Below are positions 576-62,506 of a stretch of DNA of 64,000 nucleotides, one piece after another. The stretch comes from Christensenellaceae bacterium. GTDB taxonomy: Bacteria > Bacillota > Clostridia > Christensenellales > UBA1750. A program made the position numbers and the translations under genes. The notes under the pieces were generated by a model. The model did not search any database. It was given only the letters and a program-made list of their open reading frames with translations, and was not told the DNA's origin. Each line of letters starts with the position of its first letter. Positions within the stretch are counted from its first letter, which is position 1. The stretch covers positions 1,888 through 65,887 of the forward strand of contig JAITGM010000026.1 in NCBI GenBank assembly GCA_031280685.1. The letters run 5' to 3'.

Positions 576-617
576 CGAGAAAATAGGATTTATGAAACCA
601 TCGAAAGGAGCAATAGT

Positions 618-5004: not shown

Positions 5005-5076
5005 CACAAAGACGCCAAAGGGCCTTGTAATCAAGGCACACAAGAGTTAACATCACAACAACAAGGAGGTGCTTTC

Positions 5077-5352
5077 ATGGCAAAGGATAAAGTCAAAAAA
5101 TATGCTGTCTGTTCCGATTGCGGCAGGGAGATGTCGCCGGGGACCGGCTGCGGTTGCTCACACATTTCGATCAACGGAAAAACATACGAGCGGATTCGGG
5201 CTGGCGATGACCGGGACTTCGACCAGAACATGGAGCCCGGCGATGTGTGCCATGATTGCAACGCAGGTCTTGGCCAGTATCATCACAGTGGTTGCGATGC
5301 CGAGCGTTGCCCGGCCTGCGCAGGACAGCTTCTATCCTGCGATTGCGAATAA
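5077..5352 (+). CDS. Small cysteine-rich protein (Cys-rich VLP-like), 91 aa
   Basis: AAGGAGGTG RBS. Multiple CxxC/CxC pairs (CSDCG, GCGC, CHDC, CPAC, CDC). This position next to the relaxase is typical of Firmicutes mobilisable elements. Confidence 0.65.
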   Translation: MAKDKVKKYAVCSDCGREMSPGTGCGCSHISINGKTYERIRAGDDRDFDQNMEPGDVCHDCNAGLGQYHHSGCDAERCPACAGQLLSCDCE

Positions 5353-5380
5353 CCGCCATCGATACAGAGGAGGTGCGGAC

Positions 5381-5671
5381 ATGAGAATACTATTGAAAAT
5401 ACTGGCGGCGCCCATCATGCTTCTGCTGACGATCATCGTTGCGTTCTGCACGTTCATCATTTCAGTGACAGGGGTTATCTTCTGGATTCTGTCGGTGCTT
5501 GTGTTCGTGGGCGCGGCGCTGCTGTTCTTCTCGCAGCAGATGGCGGGCGGGATCGCGTTCCTGGTGATCGCGTTCATGGTCAGCCCCTATGGGCTTCCGG
5601 CTCTCGCCGCATGGCTCATTGGCATGCTGGACAACGCAAAATATTCCCTGCGGGAGTTTTTGATGAATTAG
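5381..5671 (+). CDS. Small integral membrane protein (about 3 TM segments)
   Basis: ATG 5381 follows AGAGGAGGTG. Hydrophobic sequence MRILLKILAAPIMLLLTIIVAFCTFIISVTGVIFWILSVLVFVGAALLFF. Confidence 0.65.
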   Translation: MRILLKILAAPIMLLLTIIVAFCTFIISVTGVIFWILSVLVFVGAALLFFSQQMAGGIAFLVIAFMVSPYGLPALAAWLIGMLDNAKYSLREFLMN

Positions 5672-5694
5672 TGGTTGGTCGCTTGCACACAGAG

Positions 5695-5719
5695 GGACTC
5701 CATCGCCGTGATGGAGTCC
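5695..5719 (+). repeat. Perfect 10-bp inverted repeat (GGACTCCATC-5 nt-GATGGAGTCC) just upstream of the relaxase gene; terminator or oriT candidate
   Basis: Arms at 5695-5704 and 5710-5719, followed by a T-rich tract. It lies 35 nt before the relaxase start. Confidence 0.5.
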
Positions 5720-5753
5720 AATTCTTTTCTCTGGCGATGAGGAGGTGAAGCCA

Positions 5754-12871: not shown

Positions 12872-15307
12872 ATGAAACAACACATCCGTATCCACAAAGC
12901 CGAGCCCAATATGGGAGCTTTGGATTTCTCGCATCTACTGGACGCCCCCGCCGGTAAGCACGGTTTTGTCCGGGCATCCAAGGGCCACTTTTACTTTGAG
13001 GACGGCACGCGCGCCCGGTTTTTCGGTTTTAACATTGCCGCTCGTTCCAATTGTCCCGACCATGAGACTGCCGAGAAAATGGCGGATAGGTTTGCAAGCA
13101 TGGGTGTGAATATCATCCGTCTCCACGCCGCTGATGCGGCCCCGGGCGATGCACCCTGTTCCTGGACTGCCCGGAAGGACGCGCCTCTGCTCGACTACGA
13201 CAGCGGCAACACCCGAAGCTTCAACCCCGAGGGGCTGGATCGCTTCGACTATTTCTTTGCAAAGCTTAAAGAAAAGGGCATTTACCTCCACATCGACCTA
13301 CTGGTGGCGAGGGAATTTCTGCCCGGAGACGATTTGGACTATCCCGGCGGATTTCCCGCCACGGCAAAGTGCTATCCGGTGCTAAACGAAGGACTGACCA
13401 AGCGGGCGCAAGAATACGCAAAAGTCTTGCTAACCCATGTGAATCCCTATACCGGCCTTGCTATCGTGGATGATCCTGCGGTCATTACCGTCCAGCTTTC
13501 CAATGAGGAATCCGCCATTAAAGGCACAGATGATACAAACTGGAATCCTGAACTGCAGCCCTACCGGGATGAGCGGCAGAAGCGTTTTAATGAGTATCTG
13601 CTCGCCAAGTATCACACTCGTGAGAAGCTGGCGGCGGCATGGACATTTGAGAACATCTGCGCCCTCAAAGAGGACGAAGACCCGGCTGCCGGGACTGTGG
13701 GGGTGGTGCAAGGCAGCTTTGTCCAGCCAACCAATGAGCCTATGGGTCAGTGGGATGCCGATATAGGCCCCGCCCGGTATGCCGACTATATGGAATTCGG
13801 CATCCTGATGAATAGAAAATTTTACCAGAGGATGCGGGACTACGTGATTTCCCTTGGTGTCAGGGTTCCTGTGGTCTGCTCCAATCTACTTGGCGGCGCC
13901 GCCGATGTTTATGGCCACTCGGACGGCGACATCATGGAGAACAACTGCTATTTTAACCACCCCATCCCGCCCTTCCGGGATGACAACACCTACACCCTTG
14001 CCGGGCCAATGGAGTATGTCTCCGCAAATCCCCTCACGATGCAGCAAGGGATTGGCGCGCTGGGCAACACGTTGCTTTCCCTTGGCTCGGTGGCCGTTAT
14101 AGAGGGCAAGCCTTTCATGCTTTCCGAATGGAACGAGTATGGGGAACACCCCTTTCATTCCACTGCCACTGTCCACACTGTTGCCTACGCCTGCCTCAAC
14201 GACTGGGACGGCCTTATCCTATACAACCACCACACCTCGGAAAGCTGGGACGATCAACCCGCCGATGAAATTCTGAATGTATTCGACTGTTACAATGACC
14301 CCGCCGTTATCTGTCAGTGGGGCTTCATGGCCACCATGTTCCTGGGGGGACTGATTGCGCCCGCCAAGAATCGCGCCGATGTTGTATTCACACAGAACGA
14401 TCTGCGGACGCTGCCTAATTTCCACACCATGCCCAACTGCTTCCTTCCCTACATCACACAAATGCGCAATGTATTTTTGGATGGCGGGAATGCCTATCAG
14501 GGAGATGCCGATGTAGCCATCAATGCAGGCTTCCTCAACGGCGGCGACTTGCGGGACGCCAAACACGCCGTCTACTATGCCTGGAGTCCCTTCCGGGATG
14601 CCTGGCGGCAGTCCATGGATACCCGGCGGCTGGCTTTGGCGGCGGAAGGCACAAAGGAAGTAGAACCTGGGGTTCATCTTGGAGAGCAGACGCTGGTGCT
14701 TGACAATATTACCGAAGCATCTCAGATGGGCGACTACCGCAAGGTTGCCGCTATCTTCGATAAAGCGTTTAAGGAATGGGGCTTATTGAGCGAGGACACC
14801 GGCTATGTGGACGGCAAGCTCATCTCGGACACGAAGGAATTGTGCTTTGACCCCGACCATTCCCGCTTTTCCATCCGCACCCCCTACTGCGGCTATTTCT
14901 CCGGCGCACCGGAGAAAAATATCGTTCTTTCCGATACCATAACCGCTCAGGTGAACAACGAGCGCATCTCCATCTCCCTGATTCCCGTAGGTCAGAAGGA
15001 ACTTAGCGGCGCAAAGGAATACCTGCTGAGCGCCATGAGCGACACCGGCATGGACGAGACCACCATGTCCCCCGGCCCGGAGGTCATACCCGGATTTGCC
15101 TTTACAATAGTCCACTTTGCCGGCAAGCTCTACGCCGATACGCTGGAGGGGGCTATCACGGTAAAGGCCACTACCGCCAAGCTGGAAGCGATGGACCCGG
15201 TGGGCAATGTCCTCGCGACGCTCGAAGGACAGAAGAGCAATCAGGGCATCCGTTTCGAGCTGGACGGCACGATTCCGGCAGTCCAGTTCCGGCTAATCAC
15301 CGAGTAA
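12872..15307 (+). CDS. Large clan-A (TIM-barrel, GH5-like) glycoside hydrolase, 811 aa
   Basis: FFGFNIAA...MGVNIIRLH, VQLSNEESA (NE acid/base-like) and MLSEWNEYG (nucleophile-like) motifs. It lies within the GH operon. Confidence 0.5.
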   Translation: MKQHIRIHKAEPNMGALDFSHLLDAPAGKHGFVRASKGHFYFEDGTRARFFGFNIAARSNCPDHETAEKMADRFASMGVNIIRLHAADAAPGDAPCSWTARKDAPLLDYDSGNTRSFNPEGLDRFDYFFAKLKEKGIYLHIDLLVAREFLPGDDLDYPGGFPATAKCYPVLNEGLTKRAQEYAKVLLTHVNPYTGLAIVDDPAVITVQLSNEESAIKGTDDTNWNPELQPYRDERQKRFNEYLLAKYHTREKLAAAWTFENICALKEDEDPAAGTVGVVQGSFVQPTNEPMGQWDADIGPARYADYMEFGILMNRKFYQRMRDYVISLGVRVPVVCSNLLGGAADVYGHSDGDIMENNCYFNHPIPPFRDDNTYTLAGPMEYVSANPLTMQQGIGALGNTLLSLGSVAVIEGKPFMLSEWNEYGEHPFHSTATVHTVAYACLNDWDGLILYNHHTSESWDDQPADEILNVFDCYNDPAVICQWGFMATMFLGGLIAPAKNRADVVFTQNDLRTLPNFHTMPNCFLPYITQMRNVFLDGGNAYQGDADVAINAGFLNGGDLRDAKHAVYYAWSPFRDAWRQSMDTRRLALAAEGTKEVEPGVHLGEQTLVLDNITEASQMGDYRKVAAIFDKAFKEWGLLSEDTGYVDGKLISDTKELCFDPDHSRFSIRTPYCGYFSGAPEKNIVLSDTITAQVNNERISISLIPVGQKELSGAKEYLLSAMSDTGMDETTMSPGPEVIPGFAFTIVHFAGKLYADTLEGAITVKATTAKLEAMDPVGNVLATLEGQKSNQGIRFELDGTIPAVQFRLITE

Positions 15308-24605: not shown

Positions 24606-26978
24606 TTGGACACTCCTGCATGTATAAACGAAATTAACACCACGCTGCCCCAGGGCACGCCCGCAAGATACCTTTCAGCGGGCACACCGCTGTTTTGCGC
24701 CTATGGCTGCGCCCTGCTGGAACGCCGGACGGCAAAAAGCTATGTATACACAGCGGTCAACCTGTCAAACGGCAGATCGGTAATACTCCGGCGCAGTCTG
24801 CGCCCACTGGATGATGGCATGTACCCCGTCATGGCCGAAAAGATACGGGCATCATCCGTTCGCGGCCCCGGGCGTAACGAGGTCGACTCCGCGCCCGGCG
24901 AGAGGATACCCCAGGCAAAACTTGCGGAAGTTCTCGCGCTCATCTTTACGGATGTTCTGCCCAGGTACGGGTATGTTGTGCGCGAAAACCAGATCGGGCT
25001 GGCGAACCACATCCTTGACGCCCTGCGCCGCCGCGCCATATCCCTCGCCGAGTCCGAGGTTGGCACCGGCAAAACCCACGCCTATCTCGCGGCGTCTGTC
25101 CTCGCCAAGCGCGGCCGGCTGAACGATTTCTGGCTGCGGGGGCATTATCCTTCCCAAAGCTACGCAGAAAGCGCGTATATGCCCATTGTGATCGCCACAT
25201 CCAGTATTGCGCTTCAGCGCGCCATCGTAAAAGAATACATCCCCGAATTATCCCGCAGCCTCATGGATCACGATATCATCCGCACACCGCTGACCTTCGC
25301 CGTGCGCAAGGGCAAAGAGCATTATCTGTGCGAAAAACGGCTGCAACAGTTCTATGACGACGCCGACGAGCGGACAAAGCACCTGCTCCACCCCCTGCTG
25401 GATGAAGATGCACCCTGCGACCTGGGCGACTCGAACGGGCTGACACAGTTCATGAAGCGCAAAATCTGTGTGCAGGGAAAGTGTAGCGTGCATTGCCCAG
25501 GCCATTCGTCCTGCCGGTACACCTGTTACCTTGCCGAGGCCAACGACCCGATGGTGGATATACAGGTTACCAATCACAACTATTACCTGGCGGATATATT
25601 TCACCGCGTGAAGGGCAAACGGCCACTTCTGCCACACTACCAGCTTGTAGTCATTGACGAGGCACACAAGTTTTTGCAAGCGGCCCGGCAGATGTACGGC
25701 CTGGAGCTCGCGGAGGCAAGCATGCTCTCGCTTGTAGAGGGCATACACAGCATTGTGAGCGGAAAATCGGACACCGGCGTCAACGTCCACAGGCTTGCGA
25801 AGAAGCTGGGGGGCCAGAACAAGCAACTTTTTCAGCGCCTGCGTGAGAATACCCCGTGCGTGGAGGATGACGAGACGGAACGCTTTGCCGCCGTTATTGA
25901 CGAACAGGCACAGCGGCATTTGAAGAACATATCGGGCATCGCGGCTGACCTTACCATCGCCATGAATAACAGTTATGTGGTACCACGCTTTATGGATCGT
26001 AAATCGCAGATACTATGGGAACTTGGACGCCTGGAGGAAACGGCCGCCGCGTTGCAGAAGCGCGACGGCCTTATTTGTTGGCTGGAGCAGTCCGATGGAG
26101 CCGCCGTCGGCGATGCAAAACTCTGTGCCATTCCCAAGAACCTGGACGAGCGGCTGCATGAGGATATCTGGAACGCCGGTATCCCCATCATACTGACGTC
26201 CGGCACCCTGTCTGCTGCCGGGGACTTCAGCCGCACAAAGCACTCGCTTGGCATTGCCCGCATGGATGAGCATCGGGTGATGGAGACCAGCAAGCCTTCG
26301 CCCTTTGATTACCGTCAAAATACGTTGCTGTATATCAGCAACGCCGTTCCTTTCCCGGACTACAAGGACAGGGCATATCTGGTGGCAGTGGCGGACGAGG
26401 TCGAACGGCTGGTTCATGCATCTCATGGATACGCCGCCATTCTGTTCACATCATACAGTGCGATGGGGATGGTGTATTCCATGCTCCGGGCACGCGGCCT
26501 GCCGTTCCCGCTGTTTCAGATGGGTCGGCGGGACACTGCCGCATTGGAAAAATTCAAGGCCAACGGCAACGGCGTCCTGTTCGCGGCGGGTGCACTGTGG
26601 GAGGGCATAGATATCCCAGGAGACGCCCTTTCCATGCTCATCATCGTCAAGCTGCCCTTCGCCGCGCCCGATCCCATTGGCGAGTATGAAAAGGCGTTGT
26701 ACGGCGGCATGGAGGCTTACAAAGCGAAGGCCCTTGTGCCTGACATGCTGGTGAAACTCAAGCAGGGTTTCGGTCGGCTGATCCGCACCGAAACTGACAC
26801 CGGCATCTGTGCCATCCTGGATTGGCGTGCCCGCAGGGGTGCGGCCTACCACAGCCGTGTGTTGGCGGCCCTGCCATCCTGCCGGATGACGGACTGCATC
26901 GTTGATGTTGAACGGTTCATAGCGGAAAAGAAGCAGCCTGGCTATTTTATACAGCACGGGCTTTCGTTTTCAGCTTGA
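24606..26978 (+). CDS. DinG/XPD (Rad3)-family ATP-dependent DNA helicase with an Fe-S cluster domain
   Basis: Walker A ESEVGTGKTHAYL and DEAH box VVIDEAHKF, with seven Cys between them (CVQGKCSVHCPGHSSCRYTC). C-terminus LFAAGALWEGIDIPG and GFGRLIRTETDTG. TTG start follows GGAAAGGAGGG. Confidence 0.85.
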   Translation: MDTPACINEINTTLPQGTPARYLSAGTPLFCAYGCALLERRTAKSYVYTAVNLSNGRSVILRRSLRPLDDGMYPVMAEKIRASSVRGPGRNEVDSAPGERIPQAKLAEVLALIFTDVLPRYGYVVRENQIGLANHILDALRRRAISLAESEVGTGKTHAYLAASVLAKRGRLNDFWLRGHYPSQSYAESAYMPIVIATSSIALQRAIVKEYIPELSRSLMDHDIIRTPLTFAVRKGKEHYLCEKRLQQFYDDADERTKHLLHPLLDEDAPCDLGDSNGLTQFMKRKICVQGKCSVHCPGHSSCRYTCYLAEANDPMVDIQVTNHNYYLADIFHRVKGKRPLLPHYQLVVIDEAHKFLQAARQMYGLELAEASMLSLVEGIHSIVSGKSDTGVNVHRLAKKLGGQNKQLFQRLRENTPCVEDDETERFAAVIDEQAQRHLKNISGIAADLTIAMNNSYVVPRFMDRKSQILWELGRLEETAAALQKRDGLICWLEQSDGAAVGDAKLCAIPKNLDERLHEDIWNAGIPIILTSGTLSAAGDFSRTKHSLGIARMDEHRVMETSKPSPFDYRQNTLLYISNAVPFPDYKDRAYLVAVADEVERLVHASHGYAAILFTSYSAMGMVYSMLRARGLPFPLFQMGRRDTAALEKFKANGNGVLFAAGALWEGIDIPGDALSMLIIVKLPFAAPDPIGEYEKALYGGMEAYKAKALVPDMLVKLKQGFGRLIRTETDTGICAILDWRARRGAAYHSRVLAALPSCRMTDCIVDVERFIAEKKQPGYFIQHGLSFSA

Positions 26979-27407: not shown

Positions 27408-28628
27408 GTGATGATAGTGCATACGGAGAAATCGTATCAAACACATACAACTTCTCAAACGAGAAAATACGGCGAGGGAAGCGTATTCCTTCGCAGTGAC
27501 GGAAGGTGGGCTGCCAAGTACAAAGATGATTCTTTACCACGACCAATAACACGGTATGCCAAGACGGAGGCCGACGCCAAGCGCAAGCTGCGTGAGTTGA
27601 AGAAGGAAGTGGCCAGAGGTGTTCTTCCGACCAAGAAGGTTTTTGTGCCCGACTACATTGAGCGGTGGCTCTTTACGGTCAAGTGCAACACCATCCGGGG
27701 GACCACGCTGGACAGCTACGAGGAAGTGTTGAACATACACATCCGTCCGAAGCTGGCGCACCGGCAGATGGGCAATGTTACCTCGATGGAGCTTCAGGAA
27801 CTTCTCAACGCGACAATCGGGAAGATGGCCTACCGCAGTGCAAAATGGATCAGGGATTGTTTGAAGTTTCCTTTCGAGTATGCGGAAGCGTGCGGGGATA
27901 TTCAGCGCAATCCTATGGCCATCGTGGAACTGCCAAGCAGCGAGTTTTACATCGAGCCCAAGGATATAGAGATTCTCGAAGCGGACGAAGTCGAGGCGTT
28001 TGAAAAAATCGCCAAGGAAAAGTGCTTTGAGAAAAACTTCAGGCTGGCGCCCTTGATCGTTTTCCTACTTAAGACCGGCCTGCGCTGGGGCGAACTCATG
28101 GCATTGCCATTAGACCTGGTATCTTGGGACTTGAAACGGCTGGCCGTGGAGAAGACGCTGACGAAGGTGAAGAATCGTAACAGGAAGAGCGATGGCGAAC
28201 GGAAAGAGATGTGGGAGTTGCACCCGCCGAAAACGCCTAACAGTATACGGGACGTCCCTATGAGCCAGAGCGCGATTGAATACCTGCAACTGTTTTTAGA
28301 GGTTCGGCAGCATTTCAACCGCGCATTCGACCATACGAGTCCCTATATCTGCAAAACGCCGAGGGGCTGGGTATCCTATACTTCGTTTTACAACTGCGTA
28401 TTCCGTATGCTGGAAGAAGCCGGTATCGACAAAGACATTAGCGGGATGCATTTTACAAGGCATACATTCGCTACACGGCTGCTGCAGCTACTGATTGAAA
28501 ACGCTATCAACCCGGAGTACGCATCGAAGGTTCTTGGTCACAAGAATGTATCGACCACGCTCGACTACTACAGCCATTTATTAAAGAGAGACATGGTAAA
28601 TGGTCTAGAGTGCATGGAAGCGGTATAG
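27408..28628 (+). CDS. int: Tyrosine site-specific integrase
   Basis: Catalytic residues are visible: LRWGEL (Arg), HFTRHTFATRLL (H-x-x-R) and LGHKNVSTTLDYYSH (His, Tyr). N-terminal SAM-like domain. It is the last gene of the element. Confidence 0.92.
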   Translation: MMIVHTEKSYQTHTTSQTRKYGEGSVFLRSDGRWAAKYKDDSLPRPITRYAKTEADAKRKLRELKKEVARGVLPTKKVFVPDYIERWLFTVKCNTIRGTTLDSYEEVLNIHIRPKLAHRQMGNVTSMELQELLNATIGKMAYRSAKWIRDCLKFPFEYAEACGDIQRNPMAIVELPSSEFYIEPKDIEILEADEVEAFEKIAKEKCFEKNFRLAPLIVFLLKTGLRWGELMALPLDLVSWDLKRLAVEKTLTKVKNRNRKSDGERKEMWELHPPKTPNSIRDVPMSQSAIEYLQLFLEVRQHFNRAFDHTSPYICKTPRGWVSYTSFYNCVFRMLEEAGIDKDISGMHFTRHTFATRLLQLLIENAINPEYASKVLGHKNVSTTLDYYSHLLKRDMVNGLECMEAV

Positions 28629-30628: not shown

Positions 30629-32275
30629 TTATTGATCCATCGAGCTGCGGATCTGCGCGCGGATGATCTTGCCGGAGGTGGTTTTGGGCAGGGCGTCGAT
30701 ATAGCGCACTACGCGGGGGTATTTATAGGGCGCGGTGAGTTTCTTCACATAGTCCTGAATCTCCTTTGTGAGCGCCGGCGTGCCCTCGTGGCCGGGGGAA
30801 AGGACGATGGTGGCACAGACCACCTGGCCGCGGATTGGATCGGCTGCCGCGGTGATGGCGCACTCGAGCACGGCCGGGTGGGTGAGCAAAACCGACTCGA
30901 TTTCGAATGGGCCGATGCGGTAGCCCGAGCACTTGATGACATCATCGTTGCGGCCCACATACCAATAGAAGCCGCTTTCGTCCATCCAGGCGACATCGCC
31001 GGTGTGGTAGACCGCGGCATAGTGGCGGCTGACGCGGCCATCCGAGTAATAGCCGATGGTCAAGCCCGGCGGCAGGCCCCGGTCGAGCCCGCGGATGACG
31101 ATCTCGCCCTCCTCGCCGACGGGGCACTCGCGGCCCTCTTCATCGACGATTGCGATGTCGTAAAGGGGGGAGGGCTTGCCCATGGAGCCCGGGCAGGAAT
31201 CGAACCAGGCGAAGTTGCCTACCAACACGATGCCCTCGCTTTGGCCAAAGCCATCGTGGATGGGTAGGCCGGTGAGACGCTCGAACTCGCGGTTGACCTC
31301 GGGCGCCAGCGGTTCGCCGGCCGTGCAGCAGTGGCGGACCGACATAAAATCTTCCCGGGTGAGACCTTCGCGCATGATGAAGCGGTAAATCGTCGGCGGG
31401 ACGCAAACCGTGGTCGGTTTTTCTTGCCGAAGGACGTTGATGAGGTTCCTCGCGTTGAACTTGAGATCCTGATCATAGCCAAGGATCGCGGTGCCCGCAA
31501 TCCACTGCCCATAGAGGCAGCCCCAGCCGAACTTGGCCCAGCCAGAATCCGACGCGGTGAAGTGCAGGCCGCCATTTTCGACCTGCTGCCAGTACTTGGC
31601 CGTGACGATGTGGCCCAGGGGGTAGGTTTGGTCGTGCATGACCATCTTGGGCATGCCGGTGGTGCCGGAGGTGAAGTAGCTCAAGAGCAAATCGCTGTTT
31701 TTCAGATCAGGCGCGGCGTATTCCTCGCCCGCCGCCTCTATGCCCGTGGAATAGTCGAGCCAGCCCTCGCGGCTGCCCCTGCAAAGCGCCAGGAATTCAA
31801 GCCCCTGGCACTGCGGGAGCGCCTCCTCGATTTGCGAGAGGCTCCATTCTTCGTTGCAGGCGATGACCATGCGGATGCCGGCGATGGCCGCGCGGTAGGC
31901 GATATCCTTGGCGGTGAGCTGAATTGACGCGGGGATGAGCACCGCGCCCAGGCGGTGCAGCGCCAGCGCGGTGACCCAATACTCCCAATGGCGCTTGAGC
32001 TGCACGAGCACCATATCGCCTTTTTTGATGCCCAGATTTTGCAGGTAACTCGCCGCCTTTTTGCTCAGGGACGAGATTTCGGCAAAGCTGAACTCGCGGC
32101 GCTGGCCGTGGTCGTCAAGCCAGGCGAGGGCGCGCTTGGCAGGCTCTGCCTTGGCCCATTCATCCACGACATCGCGAGGGTAAGAGAAGCTTTCGGGCAC
32201 GAGGATCTCGAAATTCTTCTTGTAATCGTCGTAAGAATCGAAGCTTGTTTTGGCTAAGAAGCGGGAAAGCAGCAT
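30629..32275 (-). CDS. AMP-forming medium-chain acyl-CoA synthetase (MACS/ACSM-like)
   Basis: YFTSGTTGMPKMV, GYRIGPFEIES and PKTTSGKIIR adenylation motifs. ACSM-like N-terminus (FSYPRDVVDEWA). ATG 32275 lies 9 nt after AGGAGG. Confidence 0.85.
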   Translation of the reverse strand: MLLSRFLAKTSFDSYDDYKKNFEILVPESFSYPRDVVDEWAKAEPAKRALAWLDDHGQRREFSFAEISSLSKKAASYLQNLGIKKGDMVLVQLKRHWEYWVTALALHRLGAVLIPASIQLTAKDIAYRAAIAGIRMVIACNEEWSLSQIEEALPQCQGLEFLALCRGSREGWLDYSTGIEAAGEEYAAPDLKNSDLLLSYFTSGTTGMPKMVMHDQTYPLGHIVTAKYWQQVENGGLHFTASDSGWAKFGWGCLYGQWIAGTAILGYDQDLKFNARNLINVLRQEKPTTVCVPPTIYRFIMREGLTREDFMSVRHCCTAGEPLAPEVNREFERLTGLPIHDGFGQSEGIVLVGNFAWFDSCPGSMGKPSPLYDIAIVDEEGRECPVGEEGEIVIRGLDRGLPPGLTIGYYSDGRVSRHYAAVYHTGDVAWMDESGFYWYVGRNDDVIKCSGYRIGPFEIESVLLTHPAVLECAITAAADPIRGQVVCATIVLSPGHEGTPALTKEIQDYVKKLTAPYKYPRVVRYIDALPKTTSGKIIRAQIRSSMDQ

Positions 32276-32289
32276 GGGGCGAACCCTCC

Positions 32290-32638
32290 TTTGGGAATTG
32301 AGCGTTCGAAAAACGGCCTTCATCCTAAATCATTAGGACGAAGGCCGTTCGCGGTACCACCTAAATTCGCAGAAGGCAGGGCCTTCGTGCGCGCTCTGTG
32401 GGCACGGGCCGAAATCTGGCCGATGCCCCGCCCCCATAACGGCGGGCAATCCGTCGTGACCTACTCGCCTTCGCTTTGGGCCATGCCGCTCCAGGACTAC
32501 TTCTTCGGGCTCCTTCCAGGGCGCTCGCACCTCATACGCCCCTCTCTTTGGAAAGAGGAATCCGAATACTCCTTCCCTTCATCGCGTTTCTGACGATTGA
32601 ATTGCCGATAGCATACTACGCTGAAGGGGGGCTGTCAA
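32290..32638 (-). promoter_or_regulatory. T-box leader (candidate specifier GUA, Val) with its promoter, controlling the acyl-CoA synthetase
   Basis: Minus strand: TTGACA (32638-32633), 17 nt, TATGCT (32615-32610). GCGAUGA...AGUA K-turn/S-turn, AAAGAGAG bulge, GGUGCGA distal loop, GAA-GUA-G (GUA = 32500-32498). T-box core AAUUUAGGUGGUACCGCG (32367-32350). Terminator hairpin plus U5 (32349-32308). Confidence 0.8.
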
Positions 32639-41479: not shown

Positions 41480-42310
41480 TGGCGCCGGGCGGGTACTGCG
41501 GGAACCCCGCGAGCCCCTAGGGGAGTAGGCCGGGCCTTGTGCGCTGCTTCCAGCGTTGCTGCGCCCGTCGTTGCGGGTGTGGGGCGCGCTCGCTTCGCTC
41601 GCGCGCCGTGGGCCAGCTCCGCGCTTCGCGCGGCCTGGCGCTACGCGGCAGCGGCGGCTCCGCCGCCGGCTGGCCCATGGTCTCCGAGCCTTCGTTATGC
41701 GCTGCTCCCGCGAGTCCCACGGGGGAGGAAGCGAACCCTGCGCGCTGGCTGCTGCCCTTGCCGTCGTTGTGGGTATGGGGCGCGCTCGCTTCGCTCGCGC
41801 GCCGTGGGCCAGCTCCGCGCTTCGCGCGGCCTGGCGCTGCGTGGCAGCGGCGGCTCCGCCGCCGGCTGGCCCATGGCCTCCGAGCCTTCGTTATGCGGTG
41901 CTCCCGCGAGTCCTACGGGGGGAGGAAGCGAACCCTGCGCGCTGGCCGCTGCCCTTGCCGTCGTTGCGAGGAGCGGAGCAACGCGGCCATCCGGCAGGCA
42001 AGCAGAAATGAGGGTGACCTGCCTCAATCACGAGGGAGCACGCTGAATTGCTTCGCCGCCGCTCGCAAGGATGACCGGGCTGGCTTGGGCATGGAAGGTT
42101 GCCTGATGCGGCGACCTAGCGACAAGGATGGGGCCTGCCGGCGCCGCTCCGCGGCTTCGCGGGGAACCCTAACCTTCTCGCGCTGAAACCCGCACGCCGC
42201 TCCACGCCTCCGCGAGGACCTGCAGATCGACAGCCCTGCGCTGCCCGCCTTTCGCCGCCGCTGCGAGGAGCGGAGCGACGCGGCAAGCCGGCAGGCCGCA
42301 TGGTCGTGCG
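41480..42310. repeat. Composite GC-rich intergenic repeat element (modules D, A, tandem block, C, B, D, C)
   Basis: All frames on both strands are open (overlapping ORFs 41537..42186), which argues against coding. It shares GGGAGTAGGCCGGGCCTTGTGCGC, CGTTGCGAGGAGCGGAGCAACGCGGC and ATTGCTTCGCCGCCGCTCGCAAGGATGAC with loci at 43.9, 51.7, 55.0 and 59.2 kb. Confidence 0.8.
41556..42000. repeat. Tandem repeat, ~195-bp unit x ~2.2 copies
   Basis: Units start near 41556, 41750 and 41947. Copies 1 and 2 differ by roughly a dozen substitutions/indels (aligned by eye). Confidence 0.85.
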
Positions 42311-52004: not shown

Positions 52005-52280
52005 TTGACTTTTCGCAAAATCCTGCTATGATGGACTTCAACCCCGACGACGGGAAGGAGTACCCCGTTTTTCGCGCCAAAGAGAGGCTGCCGATGGCTG
52101 AAAGGCGGCCGCGCAAGGGAAGATGGGCGGAAGGTCGTCCCCGAGGGAAAGAGGCGAAGGGTTCCCCCTGCGTAACCCCTTTCGGTTCGCGCCCGTTATA
52201 GCGCAAGAGGAGCACAAATAAAGGTGGTACCACGGCGGCGCCCGTCCTTTTTGAAGGGATGGCGCCGTCTTTCTTTTTTC
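52005..52280 (+). promoter_or_regulatory. T-box leader (specifier GUC, Val) with promoter, controlling valS
   Basis: TTGACT 52005-10, 16 nt, TATGAT 52027-32. GACGA K-turn, AGUA 52059-62, AAAGAGAG 52079-86, GGCUGAAA distal loop, GUC 52134-36 followed by G. Core AAAGGUGGUACCACGG 52220-36. Terminator ends in a T-run at ~52280. Confidence 0.88.
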
Positions 52281-54981: not shown

Positions 54982-54989
54982 GCGCGGCC

Positions 54990-55180
54990 CTCCGGGCCTT
55001 CGCGGGAAGGAATTGAGATTCCCCCCGCGTGCCCCCCGTGGTGTAGGCCCGGCCTTGTGCACCAGCGGTCGCATTTGCCGTCATTGCGAGGAGCGACGCG
55101 ACAACCCGGCAGGTTGTGTAAATGCGGGCGGCCGACGTAGGCCGGATTGCTTCGCTGCCGCTCGCAATGGCGAACCGAGT
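54990..55180. repeat. Copy of the GC-rich intergenic repeat family (modules D, A, C, B)
   Basis: CCTTCGCGGGAAGG..., GTGTAGGCCCGGCCTTGTGCAC (55041-62), CATTGCGAGGAGCGACGCGACAACCCGGCAGG (~55081-55112) and GGATTGCTTCGCTGCCGCTCGCAATGGCGAAC (55144-75). It starts 9 nt after the valS stop. Confidence 0.8.
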
Positions 55181-55202
55181 CGTCTTGAGCGCGCCGTGCC
55201 CC

Positions 55203-55540
55203 TTGACATTTCCCGCGCTGGCGGCTATACTTTGGCTAATTTCATAGCATCAAACCGTTGAGGCGGAGGTAAAAACGCGATACGCCGGCAAAGAGAGCGG
55301 GGGCGGCTGGGAACCCCGCGCGAAACGGCGCGTTAAATGGGCCGCCGAGGGCGCGGTCAACGGCCAAGCGGCCTAGTATTCCGTGACGCGCAGGGCCGCG
55401 TGAGCGCCCGGGGCATCCACAAGGGGTTTTCCCTTCGCTTCGGTGCCCGCTCAAGGCGGAAGAACTTCCGCGAACTAAGGTGGTACCGCGGGCAAGAACC
55501 CGTCCTTAAAGCAAGGCTTTTCGGGCGGCTTTTTTTGTTG
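55203..55540 (+). promoter_or_regulatory. T-box leader (candidate specifier UGG, Trp) with promoter, controlling iorA-iorB-aryl-acid CoA ligase
   Basis: TTGACA 55203-08, 17 nt, TATACT 55226-31. UGA/GA K-turn, GGCGG/CCGCC helix, AGGUA, AAAGAGAG 55290-97, GGCUGGGAA loop, UGG 55338-40 plus G. Core AACUAAGGUGGUACCGCGG 55473-91. Hairpin plus U7 ending ~55537. Confidence 0.8.
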
Positions 55541-55565
55541 GCAAACCAAAGAGGGAGATGAGCTT

Positions 55566-57392
55566 TTGGCTGAAATCAGGCTTTTGATGGGCAACGAGGC
55601 GATCGCGCTGGGCGCGCTGCGCGCCGGGCTGCGCTTCGCGTCCGGCTACCCGGGCACACCCTCGTCAGAGATTTTGGAAGCCCTCGCCAAAGAGGGGCGC
55701 GAGGGTGTCTACGCGGAATGGTCGGTCAACGAAAAGACGGCGCTTGAAGCCGCCGCCGGGGCCGCCATGGCCGGCGCGCGCGCGCTGGTGACGATGAAGC
55801 AGGTCGGGCTGAACGTGGCTTCGGATCCGCTGATGAGTCTCAACTACGTGGGTGTGAAGGGGGGGATGGTCATCGTCGCGGCTGACGACCCGGGCCCGCT
55901 TTCCTCGCAGACCGAGCAGGATACCCGCCATTTTGGCCAATTCGCTAAATTGCCGGTTTTTGACCCTTCCTCGCCGGAAGAGGCCTACTTAATGATTGCC
56001 GATGCCTTCGAGCTTTCGGAAAAAATCCATAGGCCGGTGCTGTTTCGCCCCACGACCAGGGTCTGCCATGGCTACGCCTCGGTTGAGCTGCTGCCCGATC
56101 TGCCCCAAAAGGCGCCCGAGGGCTTCACGAAGGACGGCGGCGCCTGGGTGATCTTCCCGCGGCTCGCCTACGAAAACCACCTGCTCATCGAGGACGGCTT
56201 GGAGGCGTTGGCCGATGAATGGTCGGCCTACCGCTTTAACGCCCTAAGCGGCGGGGGAAGGGCGAGCAAGAAGGGCATCGCGGCCGGCGGAGTGAGCTTC
56301 GCCCACGCGGCCGAGGCCCTCGAAGGCACGGCGCAATCCGGCGCTGAATGCAGGCTGCTCAAGGTCGCGACCTATCCGATTGCGGAGCGGATGGCGCTGG
56401 ATTTTCTTGCGGGGCTAAAAGAGGTGCTCGTGGCCGAGGAGCTCGACCCCGTAATCGAGCTAGAACTGCTCCGCCTTTGCGGCAAGCACGGGCTGAAGGT
56501 CAAGATCAGGGGCAAGGGCGATCAGACCATGCCGCGCGCGGGCGAAAACAGCGCGGCGGGGGTTAAAAAGGCGATTTTTGCCTTCCTGGGGCTGAAAGAA
56601 GAACCGGCCGAGGTCTTAAACGACGAAGCCCCGGTCCTGCCCGTTCGGCCTCCGGTGCTCTGCGCGGGCTGCCCCCATCGGGGCTCCTTCTTCGCGGTCA
56701 AGGAGGCTTGCAAAGGGAAAAAAGCCGTGTTTTCAGGCGACATTGGCTGCTACACCTTGGGCAACGCGGCCCCGCTGAATATGGTCGATACCTGCCTGTG
56801 CATGGGGGCCGGCCTGGCGCAGGCGCAGGGCTTGGCCAAAATCGAACCCGAAGTCGCACACTTCGCCTTCATCGGCGATTCGACTTTTTTCCACACCGGC
56901 ATGCCCGGGGTGCTCAACGCGGTCTATAACGGCGCCGACGTGATCCTTTGCGTGCTCGATAATTCCACCACCGCGATGACCGGAGGCCAGCCGCACCCAG
57001 GCACGGGGAAAACCCTGATGGGCAAGCCTGCCGCGCAGGCCGATATTTACGGGGTTTTGCAGGCCTTGGGGGTGCGGAGCATCCGGCGGGTGAACCCCTT
57101 TGATCTAAGCGCCGCCAAGGCGGCGGTGAGGGAGGCCCTTCAAGAGAGCGGCGTGCGCGCGCTCTTGTTCGAAGGCCCCTGCATCGCCCTGGCCAAGAAG
57201 AAGCCCGCCCTTTTGGTGCTGGAAGGCTGCGTCGCTTGCGGCCGCTGTGCGCGGGAGCTGGGCTGCCCCGCGATTGCCTGGGAAAAGGGCCAAAAGGCGG
57301 GAATCGACCCGCTGCTTTGCACGGGCTGCGGCCTGTGCGCGGGGCTTTGCCCGGCGGGCGCCATCGCGGAAGGGGGCCAAAACCATGCTTAA
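55566..57392 (+). CDS. iorA: Indolepyruvate:ferredoxin oxidoreductase alpha subunit
   Basis: LLMGNEAIALGALRAG...GYPGTPSSEI. TPP-binding region GDSTFFHTGMPGVLNAVYN. C-terminal 2x[4Fe-4S] ferredoxin Cys motifs (CVACGRC...C; CTGCGLCAGLC). Confidence 0.9.
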   Translation: MAEIRLLMGNEAIALGALRAGLRFASGYPGTPSSEILEALAKEGREGVYAEWSVNEKTALEAAAGAAMAGARALVTMKQVGLNVASDPLMSLNYVGVKGGMVIVAADDPGPLSSQTEQDTRHFGQFAKLPVFDPSSPEEAYLMIADAFELSEKIHRPVLFRPTTRVCHGYASVELLPDLPQKAPEGFTKDGGAWVIFPRLAYENHLLIEDGLEALADEWSAYRFNALSGGGRASKKGIAAGGVSFAHAAEALEGTAQSGAECRLLKVATYPIAERMALDFLAGLKEVLVAEELDPVIELELLRLCGKHGLKVKIRGKGDQTMPRAGENSAAGVKKAIFAFLGLKEEPAEVLNDEAPVLPVRPPVLCAGCPHRGSFFAVKEACKGKKAVFSGDIGCYTLGNAAPLNMVDTCLCMGAGLAQAQGLAKIEPEVAHFAFIGDSTFFHTGMPGVLNAVYNGADVILCVLDNSTTAMTGGQPHPGTGKTLMGKPAAQADIYGVLQALGVRSIRRVNPFDLSAAKAAVREALQESGVRALLFEGPCIALAKKKPALLVLEGCVACGRCARELGCPAIAWEKGQKAGIDPLLCTGCGLCAGLCPAGAIAEGGQNHA

Positions 57393-57981
57393 CCTCTTAA
57401 TTGCCGGCGTGGGCGGGCAGGGAACCGTGCTAGGCGCCAGGCTATTGGGCCTTGCTGCCCTTGAAAAGGGCCTGAAGCTGCGCGGCAGCGAAACCATCGG
57501 CATGGCGCAGCGCGGCGGCAGCGTGGTTAGCCACCTGCGGCTGGGCGAGGGGGCGCATTCGCCGCTGATCCCGCTTGGCCAGGCCGATTTGCTCCTGGCC
57601 TTCGAGCCGGCCGAAGCCCTGCGCGCCTTGCCCTTTTTGCGGGCCGGCGGGCATATGCTGGTCGCCGATAGGGCGGTGCAGCCCGCGGGCATGCCGCATT
57701 ATGACGTTCCCGCCGTGCTCGCCTGCCTGAAGCGCCGCCGGCCGGGCAGCTTCTTCCTGGGCGGCGACGAGGTTCTCGCGCGCGTCGGCGGTCGGGGTCT
57801 CAACGTGGCGATGCTGGGCGCGGCCGCAGCCCTGGGCCTTTTGCCCTTTGGGCTTGCGGAGCTTGAAACCGCGCTGCGCAGGCGCCTGGCGCCGCATACC
57901 ATCGAAAGCAACCTGCGCGCGCTGCATTTGGGTGCGAAGATGGCAAAGGAAGGCGGAAACAAAGATGGAAATGACCAATGA
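57385..57981 (+). CDS. iorB: Indolepyruvate:ferredoxin oxidoreductase beta subunit
   Basis: NLLIAGVGGQGTVLGARLLG...GSETIGMAQRGGSV. The ATG overlaps the iorA stop. Confidence 0.88.
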   Translation: MLNLLIAGVGGQGTVLGARLLGLAALEKGLKLRGSETIGMAQRGGSVVSHLRLGEGAHSPLIPLGQADLLLAFEPAEALRALPFLRAGGHMLVADRAVQPAGMPHYDVPAVLACLKRRRPGSFFLGGDEVLARVGGRGLNVAMLGAAAALGLLPFGLAELETALRRRLAPHTIESNLRALHLGAKMAKEGGNKDGNDQ

Positions 57982-59200
57982 GATCCTCAGCCGGGTGCAA
58001 AGCTCGGTTCGCCGCGCGAAAAACGGCGCCTTTTACCAAAAGCACTTCGCTGCCGTCGAGCCTGGCGACATAAAGAGCGAGGCCGACTTCCTTAGGCTGC
58101 CCTTCACCGGCAAGGAAGACCTGCGCGGCGCCTACCCACTGGGCCTTTGCGCCGTTCCGCAGGAAGAAATCGTGCGCGTTCACTCCTCCTCGGGCACGAC
58201 GGGCACGCCGGTGATCATTCCCTACACGCAAAAGGATGTGGACGACTGGGCCGGGATGTTCAAGCGCTGCTACGAAATGGCGGGCATCACCAAGGCCGAC
58301 CGAATCCAGATTACGCCAGGCTACGGCCTGTGGACGGCGGGCATCGGCTTCCAGCTCGGCGCCGAGCGCCTGGGCGCCATGGCCGTGCCCATGGGCCCGG
58401 GGAATACCGACAAGCAGATCCAGATGATGATCGACCTCAAATCCACGGTCCTCACCGCGACCTCTTCCTATGCCCTCCTTTTGGCTGAAGAGATCACAAA
58501 AAGGGGCCTGCACGATCGAATTCACCTCAAAAAGGGCGTGATCGGCTCGGAGCGCTGGGGCGAAAAGATGCGAAGGCGCATCGCCGGCGAGCTGGGCGTG
58601 GAGCTTTTTGACATCTATGGCCTGACCGAGATCTACGGCCCCGGCATCGGCATCAACTGCCCCCTGCAGGAGGGCATGCACCTGTGGAGCGATTACTTTT
58701 TTTACGAAATCATCAATCCGCAGACGGGCGAGCGCGTGCCCGAGGGCGAGATCGGCGAGCTGGTCATCACCACTTTCGAAAAGGAGGGCGCACCGCTGAT
58801 CCGATACCGCACCCACGACCTCACAAGGGCCATTCCGGGGCCCTGCCCCTGCGGTTCGCCCTATCCGCGCATCGCGCCGCTCATCGGCAGATCCGACGAT
58901 ATGGTCAAGGTTCGGGGCACGATCATCTACCCGAGCCGGGTCGATGAGCTGCTCTCGTCCATCGAGGGCGTGAGCAGCGAATACCAAATCATGATCGACC
59001 ACCTCAACGGCCGCGACATCCTCACGCTCTTCTTTGAAAGCGAGCTGACCGGCGGCGCCAAGCAAGCGGGCCTGGAAGCCGAGGTCGAAGCGCAGTTTAA
59101 GGCGCGAATCGGCATGACGCCGAGCGCGAAGGCGGTCAAAGTCGGCGAGCTGCCCCGGAGCGAAAAAAAGACCACCCGCATTTTCGATAATCGCTACTAG
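57965..59200 (+). CDS. Phenylacetate-CoA ligase (PaaK)-family aryl-acid CoA ligase
   Basis: LPFTGKEDLRGAYP, VHSSSGTTGTPVIIPYT, GYGLWTAGIGFQLGAERLGA, and a C-terminal ACT-like end. It overlaps the iorB 3' end. Confidence 0.85.
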   Translation: MEMTNEILSRVQSSVRRAKNGAFYQKHFAAVEPGDIKSEADFLRLPFTGKEDLRGAYPLGLCAVPQEEIVRVHSSSGTTGTPVIIPYTQKDVDDWAGMFKRCYEMAGITKADRIQITPGYGLWTAGIGFQLGAERLGAMAVPMGPGNTDKQIQMMIDLKSTVLTATSSYALLLAEEITKRGLHDRIHLKKGVIGSERWGEKMRRRIAGELGVELFDIYGLTEIYGPGIGINCPLQEGMHLWSDYFFYEIINPQTGERVPEGEIGELVITTFEKEGAPLIRYRTHDLTRAIPGPCPCGSPYPRIAPLIGRSDDMVKVRGTIIYPSRVDELLSSIEGVSSEYQIMIDHLNGRDILTLFFESELTGGAKQAGLEAEVEAQFKARIGMTPSAKAVKVGELPRSEKKTTRIFDNRY

Positions 59201-59204
59201 GCGG

Positions 59205-59350
59205 CGCGCCCCTCCGGGGCTTCGCGGGAGGGTACTGCGGCACCCTTCGCGTGCCCCCTGGGGGAGTAGGCGGGCCTTGCGCGCGGGCCGCCCCTTTTCA
59301 AGGGGGAAGCAGGCTGGATTGCTTCACCGCCGTTGGCAATGACGAACTGG
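59205..59350. repeat. Copy of the GC-rich intergenic repeat family (modules D, A, B)
   Basis: GGCTTCGCGGGAGGGTACTGCGG, GGGAGTAGGCGGGCCTTGCGCGC (59262-84) and GGATTGCTTCACCGCCGTTGGCAATGACGAAC (59316-47). It starts 5 nt after the ligase stop. Confidence 0.8.
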
Positions 59351-59438
59351 GCCGCCTTGTTGCGTTGGAGGGCCGCGCGCTTTCTCAAGGCTTGAAAAAC
59401 CCCCGCGAAGGCGCTATTCTGGGTGAGGAGATGATGGC

Positions 59439-60694: not shown

Positions 60695-62506
60695 ATGGCG
60701 AGGCGCATCGTATTGGACGGAGGCTGGAAATTGGGCATACGGCCCTGCTTCGGCGGGGAGACGGAGGCTGAGTTGCCCGCCGCGCTGCCCCTTGATTTGC
60801 GCGAGGCGCTGGGCTTGCGCGGCGGGAAGGCCGACGAATGGGCGCTCTTGCGGGAGTTTACTCTAAAGACCATGGTCGCAAGGCCTAAGGAGCCTGAGGA
60901 GGGGCGTTCGGAGCGCTTCTTTTTGCATCTGCCCGAGGTTTATGGCCGGGGCGAGGCCTTCTTAAACGGCCACAGGTTGGGCCGGCTGGAAAGCGCTGCG
61001 GTTTTGGAGCTGACCGAGGCCCTGAGCGAGGAGGAGCGGCTGCTCGAGCTGCGTTTTGCCCCGGCGTTGGGCGCGGGCTTTGGCGCCCTGCCCAGGATTC
61101 CCCTGCCGCCGGAGATGGTGGGGAACTACTTTGCCCGCTTTTTGCGCGTGGAGGCGCGGGCGGGACTGCGGGGCGAGGTTGAGCTGCGCGCCGAGATCGA
61201 AGGCTTTGGCGAAGGGAGGGTGCGGCTGCTCTGCCGCCTGCTCCGCGGCGACGAGCTAGCGGCCAGCCGCACGTTGGAGGCCAGAATTCAGGCTAAAAGG
61301 CAGGTGCTTTCCTGCGTGCTGCGGGCCGAGAGCCCGAAGATCTGGCCGGGCGAGGAGGCCGCGGCCGCGCTGTATACCCTGCGGCTGACGCTGGAGCGCG
61401 GCGGCGCGCGCAGCGACATGGCCGAGCTGAAGCTGGGCTTCGCGCCGCGCGAGTTTCGGCCCGAGGGCTTCTTTGGCTGGATGGCGACGGGCTGCCCGGC
61501 TGGGAAGGCGCTGCGAACGCTCCGCTCGCTGGGCTTTACGGCGCTCTGCCTGGAGGAGCCAGGGGAAGGCGCGCTCCGCGAGGCCGACCGGGCCGGGCTT
61601 GAAGTGCTGGCGCTGCTAAGCGAGGGGGAAGCGGATCCGCGCGGGCTGAGCGCCCGCCTGGCAGCGCACCCAAGCGCCCTTGGGCTTGCCTTCCTGGGCC
61701 TTCGTTTTGCCGATGGCAGCCTGGCGGATGCGCGGCATGAAGCGCTGTTCGCGGCGGCCAGGGCGGCAGGGGAACAGGGCCTTTGTGCCCTGAACTTGCC
61801 GCAGAGCGGCCTGGAGCTTTTGGAATGCCCCGAGACGGGACCTGGCCTTGAACGGGCGCTATGGCTCTTCCGCAGCCTGAGCGCGGCCAGGGCACTTGGC
61901 CGCGGGTTTTTGCTGCGCGCGCCACTTGAGGCCCTCGAAGCCGAGGAGGCGGCTGCGCTGCGCGCCGCGCTCGCGCCAAACGCCCTGCAGGCCGAGCTTT
62001 TATCGAAGCGCTTTTACCCGGGGGCCCGCTTTGCCGCCAGGATCAGGCTGCTGGGGGCCGCCGAGGGCGTGCTGCAGGCGCGGGCGGAGCTCTTTCAGAC
62101 CGACGGCAGCCTGGTGGCGCAGCGGATCTTCAGCCTGTGCGCGGGGCCTGAGGAAACGAGCGCGGCGGCGCTGGAAACCCAATTGCCCTGGGGCCTTGGC
62201 GGCGCGCTGCTGCTGCGCCTGGCGCTTTATAGGGGCGAGAGCCTGCTTTGGCGCTGGGACGAGCCCATCCCCTGCGGCGAAAACGGGATGGAGGATGTTG
62301 GCAGCGCCGAAATCACCCTTGCGAGCGCCGGGGCGCGGTGCTATGCTGTGAACGCCGGGCGCGCCGTCGCCTTCGGCCTGCTGGCCGAGGATGCTTCGCT
62401 CTGCGCTCTGCTGCCCGGCGAGCGCGTGCCCGTGACGTTGGGCAAGATGGGGCGCTGGGATGGTTTCCCGGCTGCCGCGCTGGAGGAAGACGATGTTTCG
62501 GACTGA
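60695..62506 (+). CDS. Hypothetical Ala/Leu/Gly-rich protein with a GH2-N-like (sugar-binding jelly-roll) N-terminus
   Basis: FFLHLPEVYGRGEAFLNGHRLGRLE resembles the GH2 N-domain pattern. The rest is low-complexity and GC-driven. Confidence 0.45.
   Translation: MARRIVLDGGWKLGIRPCFGGETEAELPAALPLDLREALGLRGGKADEWALLREFTLKTMVARPKEPEEGRSERFFLHLPEVYGRGEAFLNGHRLGRLESAAVLELTEALSEEERLLELRFAPALGAGFGALPRIPLPPEMVGNYFARFLRVEARAGLRGEVELRAEIEGFGEGRVRLLCRLLRGDELAASRTLEARIQAKRQVLSCVLRAESPKIWPGEEAAAALYTLRLTLERGGARSDMAELKLGFAPREFRPEGFFGWMATGCPAGKALRTLRSLGFTALCLEEPGEGALREADRAGLEVLALLSEGEADPRGLSARLAAHPSALGLAFLGLRFADGSLADARHEALFAAARAAGEQGLCALNLPQSGLELLECPETGPGLERALWLFRSLSAARALGRGFLLRAPLEALEAEEAAALRAALAPNALQAELLSKRFYPGARFAARIRLLGAAEGVLQARAELFQTDGSLVAQRIFSLCAGPEETSAAALETQLPWGLGGALLLRLALYRGESLLWRWDEPIPCGENGMEDVGSAEITLASAGARCYAVNAGRAVAFGLLAEDASLCALLPGERVPVTLGKMGRWDGFPAAALEEDDVSD

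Follow-up and report, generated by a model that had tools for sequence, protein, structure and literature searches.

Here we describe a T-box leader that precedes genes for indolepyruvate:ferredoxin oxidoreductase (IOR; iorA and iorB) and a PaaK-family aryl-acid coenzyme A (CoA) ligase in a 64,000-nucleotide (nt) stretch of DNA, hereafter the window, from a Christensenellaceae bacterium (GCA_031280685.1, contig JAITGM010000026.1, positions 1,888-65,887, forward strand). The locus is confirmed, as RNA anatomy, to be a class-I transcriptional T-box leader, and is predicted to gate the iorA-iorB-paaK-like operon by switching. We propose, with a probability of roughly 0.6, that this tryptophan (Trp) T-box gates iorAB-paaK as a Trp-starvation-induced salvage route from indole-3-acetate to Trp. 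The proposed direction and putative substrate of the enzymes are argued from (i) the logic of T-box regulation, (ii) the AMP-forming, rather than ATP-conserving, type of the ligase, and (iii) published aryl-acid assimilation.

The window has a base composition of roughly 62-65% GC. T-boxes were identified with the Rfam model RF00230, for which the gathering score is 93 bits; a default scan at this threshold misses both the ior leader and the leader of valS in the same window, and permissive filters recovered both. The comparison set consisted of 80 ior loci from other genomes, one genome per species (loci are designated by L numbers). A Stem I covariance model, R1, was run across these 80 loci and the window. 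It is important to note that R1 was built from UGG-bearing leaders and is biased towards UGG; despite this seed it still recovered Val and Asn T-boxes, each with its own codon, and in control leaders read GUA for an acyl-CoA-synthetase leader of the window, GUC for the valS leader, and AAC for an unrelated T-box in L013. R1 replaced a hand-written Stem I parser that handled only about half of the leaders. A MAFFT alignment mixing Stem I of all three window T-boxes with relatives misplaced the valS specifier loop and was not used as a model seed. Covariation was evaluated on seven ior-type Stem I sequences, aligned by MAFFT with no structure fitted, and the consensus was derived by RNAalifold.

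The features of the locus are summarized in Table 1. The ior leader gives a full-length alignment with RF00230 at 66.5 bits (E = 3e-12 for the whole window). A complete T-box leader between the promoter and iorA had been recognized in the initial annotation, and all of its parts were found at the positions assigned to them there, with RF00230 aligned end to end. The promoter scan found one site versus 0.1 expected in shuffles, and DNA similarity to the closest relative (L001) restarts at 55200, exactly at the promoter. Compensatory changes were observed in 18 of 22 Stem I pairs; pairing is retained in 92% of cells, versus 65% in shuffles, and collapses when partners are slid by 1-3 columns, and the covariation score was matched by none of 500 shuffles. 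All five pairs of the closing helix show compensatory changes, including a C-G to U-A double change by which GGCGG/CCGCC of the window becomes GGUGG/CCACC in L001.

These data bear on whether the leader could be a decayed or non-switching T-box relic, leaving the operon constitutive or under another regulator. The low RF00230 score (66.5 bits; gathering score, 93) and a variant S-turn motif (GGUA/AAA rather than AGUA/GAA) would be compatible with decay. We nevertheless consider a relic very improbable, given that the functional parts are all intact, that the terminator and antiterminator compete, that compensatory changes keep the helices even against L001, and that the same variant architecture is conserved in approximately 11 other leaders. 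Orthologous ior leaders in L038, L080, L063, and L051 pass the gathering score (93.6-108.9 bits). The valS leader of the same GC-rich genome is likewise under the threshold, and low scores are therefore taken to reflect base composition and divergence.

Table 1. Features of the Trp T-box/ior locus and of the other T-box leaders in the window. Positions are those of the window.
Feature	Position	Strand	Evidence or remarks
Sigma-70-type promoter, TTGACA-17 nt-TATACT	55203-55231	+	11/12 matches
T-box leader (Stem I, Stem II, IIA/B, Stem III, antiterminator)	55249-55510	+	RF00230 model positions 1-219 of 219
Stem I with kink-turn (K-turn)	55249-55350	+	Covariation
K-turn, UGA with GA	55259-55261 with 55347-55348	+	Sequence
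Closing helix, GGCGG/CCGCC	55262-55266/55342-55346	+	Sequence and covariation
AGGUA	55267-55271	+	Sequence
AG bulge, AAAGAGAG	55290-55297	+	Sequence
Distal loop, GGCUGGGAA	55305-55313	+	Sequence
Specifier, UGG (Trp)	55338-55340	+	RF00230 columns; followed by G 55341
Conserved T-box core, AACUAAGGUGGUACCGCGG	55473-55491	+	UGGU bulge (55481-55484) pairs with NCCA 3' end of tRNA
Antiterminator	55475-55509	+	Helix A1 UAAGG/CCUUA, 7-nt bulge, helix A2 GCGGG/CCCGU
Intrinsic terminator hairpin, then U7	55500-55528, then 55530-55536	+	Strand CCGUCCUUA common to antiterminator
iorA, IOR alpha subunit	55566-57392	+	TIGR03336, 672.3 bits (above cutoff of 650.9)
iorB, IOR beta subunit	57385-57981	+	IOR_beta models, 145-152 bits; Pfam POR, 108.8 vs 27.4
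PaaK-family AMP-forming aryl-acid CoA ligase	57965-59200	+	Pfam AMP-binding (PF00501) and AMP-binding_C_2 (PF14535)
valS T-box leader	52038-52252	+	RF00230, 77.4 bits (< 93); GUC specifier, UGGU bulge
Val T-box, GUA specifier	32331-32591	-	RF00230, 104.9 bits (above gathering score)

Alignment of Stem I reveals two covarying specifier-loop architectures among the ior leaders. The first pairs 5' AGUA with 3' GAA (L007, L038, L051, L063, and L080), and the second pairs 5' G(G/A)UAAAA with 3' YAAA (the window, L001, L008, L010, L015, L016, L023, L055, L057, and L059), the latter also being present in a non-ior leader in L031. This second architecture appears to be a variant S-turn.

The identity of the sensed tRNA depends on the specifier codon. 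In the RF00230 alignment, UAAA-UGG-G just 5' of CCGCC in the ior leader occupies the columns of GAAG-GUC-G in the valS leader; the model places UGG, and not AUG or AAU, in the specifier slot, in agreement with the Trp codon originally read there, and returns the same GUC that had been read for valS. The register of the closing helix leaves an eight-nucleotide unpaired 3' segment, N-R-A-A-U-G-G-N, and all five pairs of this helix, which sets the codon register, covary. Every one of the 18 related Stem I sequences carries UGG. The TBDB rule places the specifier at nucleotides 2-4 of the specifier bulge, counted from its 3' end (PMC7778990), which for the ior leader gives UGG. The leader is thus very likely specific for tRNA-Trp.

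Were the specifier read in another frame, as AUG (Met) or GGN (Gly), a different tRNA would be sensed. AAUGGN is conserved as a block, so conservation alone leaves the frame unfixed; even so, a shifted frame is scarcely credible, as the model columns are calibrated by valS and the TBDB rule gives UGG. An AUG frame would overlap the S-turn GAA in the five leaders that read GAAUGGN, and a GGN frame would require four different Gly codons. Bacterial tRNA-Met carries A73 and tRNA-Gly carries U73, both of which misfit the division of the acceptor bulge between UGGC and UGGU. This bulge reads UGGU in 8 of 17 leaders (the window, L005, L008, L038, L049, L055, L057, and L063) and UGGC in the other nine (L001, L007, L010, L015, L016, L023, L051, L059, and L080), with UGGA or UGGG in none of the 17. 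Since G can pair with C and form a wobble pair with U, a bulge restricted to U or C fits G73 rather than the A73 of tRNA-Met or the U73 of tRNA-Gly. In TBDB, 46% of Trp T-boxes carry U opposite G73 of tRNA-Trp (PMC7778990), and U occurs in the same proportion among the 17 ior leaders. An earlier reservation, that UGGU would favour discriminator A73, is largely answered by the restriction of the variable base to U or C across the 17 leaders and by the U/G73 precedent in TBDB.

The antiterminator, CUAAGG-UGGUACC-GCGGG-CAAGAA-CCCGU-CCUUAA, is the minimum-energy fold of its segment (-10.2 kcal/mol), and the terminator hairpin is stronger (-14.4 kcal/mol). The 3' strand of the antiterminator doubles as the 5' arm of the terminator, making the two folds mutually exclusive, and a U-run closes every orthologous leader. 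As in characterised T-boxes, the terminator is predicted to be the default state, with tRNA binding needed to prevent it. T-boxes are established to activate genes when the cognate tRNA is uncharged (PMC7778990). In the proposed switch, transcription would begin at the TTGACA/TATACT promoter and, when tRNA-Trp is mostly charged, the terminator and its U7 would form and RNA polymerase would halt before iorA. Under Trp shortage, the CCA anticodon of uncharged tRNA-Trp would pair with UGG in the Stem I loop, the tRNA elbow would stack on the platform that the AG bulge and distal loop build, and the free 3' end of the tRNA, G73-CCA, would pair with the UGGU bulge through a G-U wobble at the discriminator. 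The weaker antiterminator would thereby be stabilised, permitting readthrough into the operon.

The linkage between the T-box and ior extends well beyond the window. The closest relative of IorA (89% identical) is encoded by a Christensenellaceae metagenome-assembled genome (L001), and all other homologues are at most 68% identical. Many of the 80 ior loci have a T-box core approximately 100 nt 5' of iorA, and R1 detected Stem I directly upstream of iorA in 16 of the 80 (L001, L005, L007, L008, L010, L015, L016, L023, L038, L049, L051, L055, L057, L059, L063, and L080). All 16 leaders read UGG, one base, and then the closing helix; the four that exceed the Rfam gathering score all read GAA-UGG-N, and no T-box with a non-UGG specifier was found upstream of iorA in the 80 loci. 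The survey of relatives that had been suggested with the initial annotation thus places a Trp T-box at one fifth of the ior loci, in several families of Clostridia, the carriers spanning Christensenellaceae, Oscillospiraceae, Ruminococcaceae, Lachnospiraceae, Tissierella, Desulfosporosinus, Sporobacter, and Solibaculum. Whether or not a T-box is present, the gene order iorA-iorB-paaK is near-universal across the 80 loci.

Monophyly of T-box-linked IorA was rejected, carriers being interleaved with non-carriers in a neighbour-joining tree. The association is therefore patchy, and either ancient with losses or repeatedly acquired.

In two of the carriers, approximately 200-250 nt separate the terminator U-run from the iorA start in L005 (1494-1730) and L057 (2923-3115), and no convincing open reading frame (ORF) was found between T-box and iorA in either. 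The gap could be an extra leader element or simply a long untranslated region. In L031, an iorAB pair lacks both paaK and a T-box of its own; a UGG-specifier Stem I (8639-8741) is located approximately 3 kb downstream of this pair, and the gene controlled by this leader falls beyond the end of the fetched locus.

The iorA product of the window operon contains thiamine pyrophosphate-binding domains and a 4Fe-4S domain; its ribosome binding site, GAGGGAG, lies at 55551-55557, and its start is placed at TTG 55566, the gene caller of the public collection picking ATG 55587 instead. The iorB start overlaps the iorA end by 8 nt, iorB being translationally coupled to iorA, and the ligase start overlaps the iorB end by 17 nt, which bears out the overlapping start and stop codons noted originally for iorA, iorB, and a PaaK-family ligase. 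IorB scores under the IOR_beta equivalog cutoffs (145-152 vs 206-284 bits) and is assigned at the family level only. The ligase is of the AMP-forming PaaK type, which spends ATP on the thioester, and its nearest entries in the Protein Data Bank are 4r1l/4rvn (phenylacetate-CoA ligase) and 2y27. No conserved gene (aminotransferase, transporter, or other) follows paaK in the ior loci.

Because a T-box responds to uncharged cognate tRNA by activating its genes, the operon products should raise the supply of Trp. A corresponding route can be drawn, in which the AMP-forming ligase would convert indole-3-acetate to indoleacetyl-CoA, IOR operating in reverse with reduced ferredoxin and CO2 would carboxylate indoleacetyl-CoA to indole-3-pyruvate, and a housekeeping aminotransferase would yield Trp. 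In labelling work of the 1960s-70s, Allison and co-workers reportedly showed that rumen anaerobes reductively carboxylate indoleacetate, phenylacetate, and branched-chain acids. Published precedents include the synthesis of Phe from phenylacetate and the carboxylation of phenylacetate and branched-chain acids in rumen cultures (PMC7356843), and Methanococcus maripaludis, in which aryl acids feed aromatic amino-acid synthesis via IOR (Porat et al. 2004, as cited in PMC4162585). In the genome paper on Geobacter metallireducens, iorAB-paaK is placed in the 'tryptophan' category of biosynthetic operons that have conserved 5' elements (PMC2700814).

The same switch could instead serve a broader purpose. 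The enzymes may constitute a general aryl-acid assimilation module that makes Phe, Tyr, and Trp from phenylacetate, 4-hydroxyphenylacetate, and indoleacetate, for which Trp, as the scarcest of the aromatic amino acids, would be no more than the sentinel signal. Pyrococcus and Methanococcus IORs accept all three arylpyruvates. Acceptance of all three is general among IOR enzymes (PMC13285125), the best family and structure matches of the ligase are phenylacetate-CoA ligases, and the iorAB-paaK cluster is widespread without any T-box. A Phe or Tyr specifier, however, was found 5' of iorA in none of the 80 loci, and all 16 T-boxes read UGG; only UGG specifiers occur at ior, and the selected function is therefore argued to be Trp supply. 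We regard the general module as rather unlikely.

IOR was first described as a peptide-fermentation enzyme, and gut-microbiome studies usually take ior as indoleacetate-producing. Such usage would favour a catabolic operon (Trp to indolepyruvate to indoleacetyl-CoA to indoleacetate) whose T-box is tied to tRNA-Trp for another reason, as would the CD2382-iorAB-butK operon of Clostridioides difficile, in which iorAB accompany an aminotransferase and butyrate kinase under SigL-dependent, catabolic control (PMC7438776). Induction by uncharged tRNA-Trp, on the other hand, would destroy Trp just when it is scarce, and an AMP-forming ligase cannot conserve the thioester energy. Known catabolic clusters carry other enzymes instead: IOR/VOR clusters adjoin Pta and Ack or ADP-forming ligases (PMC13285125), and that of C. 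difficile includes a kinase (PMC7438776). A catabolic role is, in our estimation, very improbable.

Several observations weigh against Trp salvage from indole-3-acetate as the function of the gated operon. With respect to the switch, the leader fails the RF00230 gathering cutoff and carries the variant S-turn, regulation is not universal (64 of 80 ior loci are without a T-box), and no tRNA-Trp gene was found either in the window, which contains only tRNA-Arg and tRNA-Thr, or in the 80 ior loci. With respect to the enzymes, the breadth of IOR towards arylpyruvates noted above does not single out indolepyruvate, the ligase reaches 378.8 bits against TIGR02155 (PaaK), under the equivalog cutoff of 646.3 and hence a family-level assignment only, and no aminotransferase, transporter, or trp gene is present in the operon or the window.

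Comparison with known systems indicates that what is new is the target, the RNA itself being an ordinary Trp-class T-box. Trp T-boxes of trpS, the trpE operon, and trpXYZ/trpP leaders share with the ior leader the same architecture, UGG specifier, UGGY bulge, and competing terminator and antiterminator, and often use a G-U wobble to G73 (PMC7778990), as proposed here. Unlike these, the ior leader controls a 2-oxoacid:ferredoxin oxidoreductase and a CoA ligase, rather than a synthetase, a shikimate/trp enzyme, or a transporter, and many ior leaders, including that of the window, use the variant S-turn GGUA/AAA. The M. maripaludis IOR (MMP0713/0714), as cited in PMC4162585, resembles the reading proposed here in being an anabolic IOR through which aryl acids yield arylpyruvates and then amino acids; its pathway is archaeal, without a T-box, and regulated differently, whereas the direction proposed for the window operon is drawn from regulation alone. 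Reductive carboxylation in the rumen (PMC7356843) involves the same proposed chemistry in the same kind of habitat (gut anaerobes) as the window locus, although the labelling work assigned no genes or regulators. The iorAB-paaK operon of Geobacter has the same three genes, a proposed role in Trp supply, and a cis-regulatory leader, but its 5' element is approximately 90 nt long and not described as a T-box, and the organism belongs to a different phylum (PMC2700814). While C. difficile CD2382-iorAB-butK shares homologous IOR subunits with the window operon, it is SigL-dependent, includes an aminotransferase and an ATP-conserving enzyme, and is without a T-box or AMP-forming ligase (PMC7438776). 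Similarly, the IOR/VOR clusters with Pta and Ack or ADP-forming ligases contain homologous IOR subunits, but are catabolic and lack both a T-box and an AMP-forming ligase (PMC13285125).

A T-box linked to indolepyruvate, iorA, ferredoxin oxidoreductase, or phenylacetate-CoA ligase was not found in the searchable literature, where papers naming both T-box and iorA mention them in unrelated places; an earlier mention in Vitreschak et al. 2008, RegPrecise, or TBDB records is possible, and priority is not certain. None of the ior or ligase genes is mentioned in the supplements to Wels et al. 2008 or TBDB. The literature and these two T-box surveys are consistent with the view, offered at the outset, that ior lies outside the classical T-box regulon. 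Linkage of a T-box to ior would extend that regulon beyond synthetases, classical biosynthesis, and transport. IOR is usually annotated, and counted in microbiome studies, as a catabolic indoleacetate producer; a Trp-starvation switch at iorAB-paaK, conserved in several families of Clostridia, constitutes regulatory evidence for the opposite direction in these organisms. If the proposed route is correct, the operon would salvage indole-3-acetate, a common fermentation product, aryl hydrocarbon receptor ligand, and plant auxin, into Trp, and predictions of Trp cross-feeding and auxotrophy would change for gut, rumen, and termite communities. The locus also offers a genetic handle on reductive-carboxylation pathways known only from labelling. 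In addition, T-boxes of GC-rich Clostridia that fall under the Rfam gathering score escape default annotation.

The window holds three T-boxes, two of which (ior and valS) are under the RF00230 gathering score. The third, with its GUA specifier, gates a monocistronic acyl-CoA synthetase (30629-32591 for the whole locus, - strand) whose best match is MbcS, a branched-chain carboxylate-CoA ligase. The closest metagenomic relative of the synthetase (L082, 1213-3153; 58% identical, from a termite-gut-type metagenome) has the same GUA T-box. In distant relatives (L148-L152, about 534-3072), an AUC (Ile) T-box is followed by a gene combining XRE-type helix-turn-helix (HTH) and cupin domains and then by the synthetase, and in some distant loci, e.g. 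L154 of the L154/L158 group, the HTH-cupin protein is fused to the synthetase. These arrangements suggest T-box-gated activation of isobutyrate or 2-methylbutyrate by the MbcS-like synthetase for Val/Ile salvage.

The Val T-box/MbcS-like locus parallels the ior case and hints at a wider theme of acid salvage. Tentatively, and with somewhat less than an even chance of being right, T-box-gated salvage modules built on oxoacid oxidoreductases running in reverse may form a family in anaerobic Firmicutes. In such modules, shortage of an amino acid, registered as uncharged tRNA, would switch on acid-activating CoA ligases and ferredoxin-dependent 2-oxoacid synthases. The routes envisaged in this tentative family would lead from indole-3-acetate to Trp (iorAB-paaK), and from isobutyrate to Val and 2-methylbutyrate to Ile (MbcS-like synthetases under Val/Ile T-boxes). 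If it exists, the family would provide genes and regulators to account for the rumen labelling results of Allison, and many of the ior genes tallied in gut metagenomes as producing indoleacetate would in fact consume it.

Synteny of valS and ior is kept between the window and L001. A GC-rich intergenic repeat family (core GGATTGCTTCNNYGCCGYTNGCAATG; 3 matches in the window, 0 expected) has copies at 54985-55200, 59201-59360, and 41486-42295, copies of which bracket the T-box-ior operon in direct orientation. In L001 (2396-3033), the spacer between valS and ior is filled by at least four oppositely oriented copies at intervals of approximately 175 nt. The element resembles a repetitive extragenic palindrome or a miniature inverted-repeat transposable element.

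Elsewhere in the window, positions 1203-7181 contain mobile-element genes encoding a topoisomerase, DUF4314/DUF3849/DUF4316 and DUF5699 proteins, and a MobA/VirD2 relaxase, resembling an integrative and conjugative element, and a phage-type integrase (27408-28628) lies near the Val T-box locus. An 811-amino-acid ORF without a Pfam match (12872-15307, + strand) is located within a glycoside-hydrolase cluster (GH1, GH3, GH94, and rhamnosidase), and a 603-amino-acid ORF (60695-62506, + strand) has no Pfam or NCBIfam match. A dinG RNA motif (RF03082; 24334-24433, + strand) scores 71.4 bits against a gathering score of 46.9 and lies directly 5' of a DinG-type helicase gene (24606-26978, + strand; Pfam Helicase_C_2).

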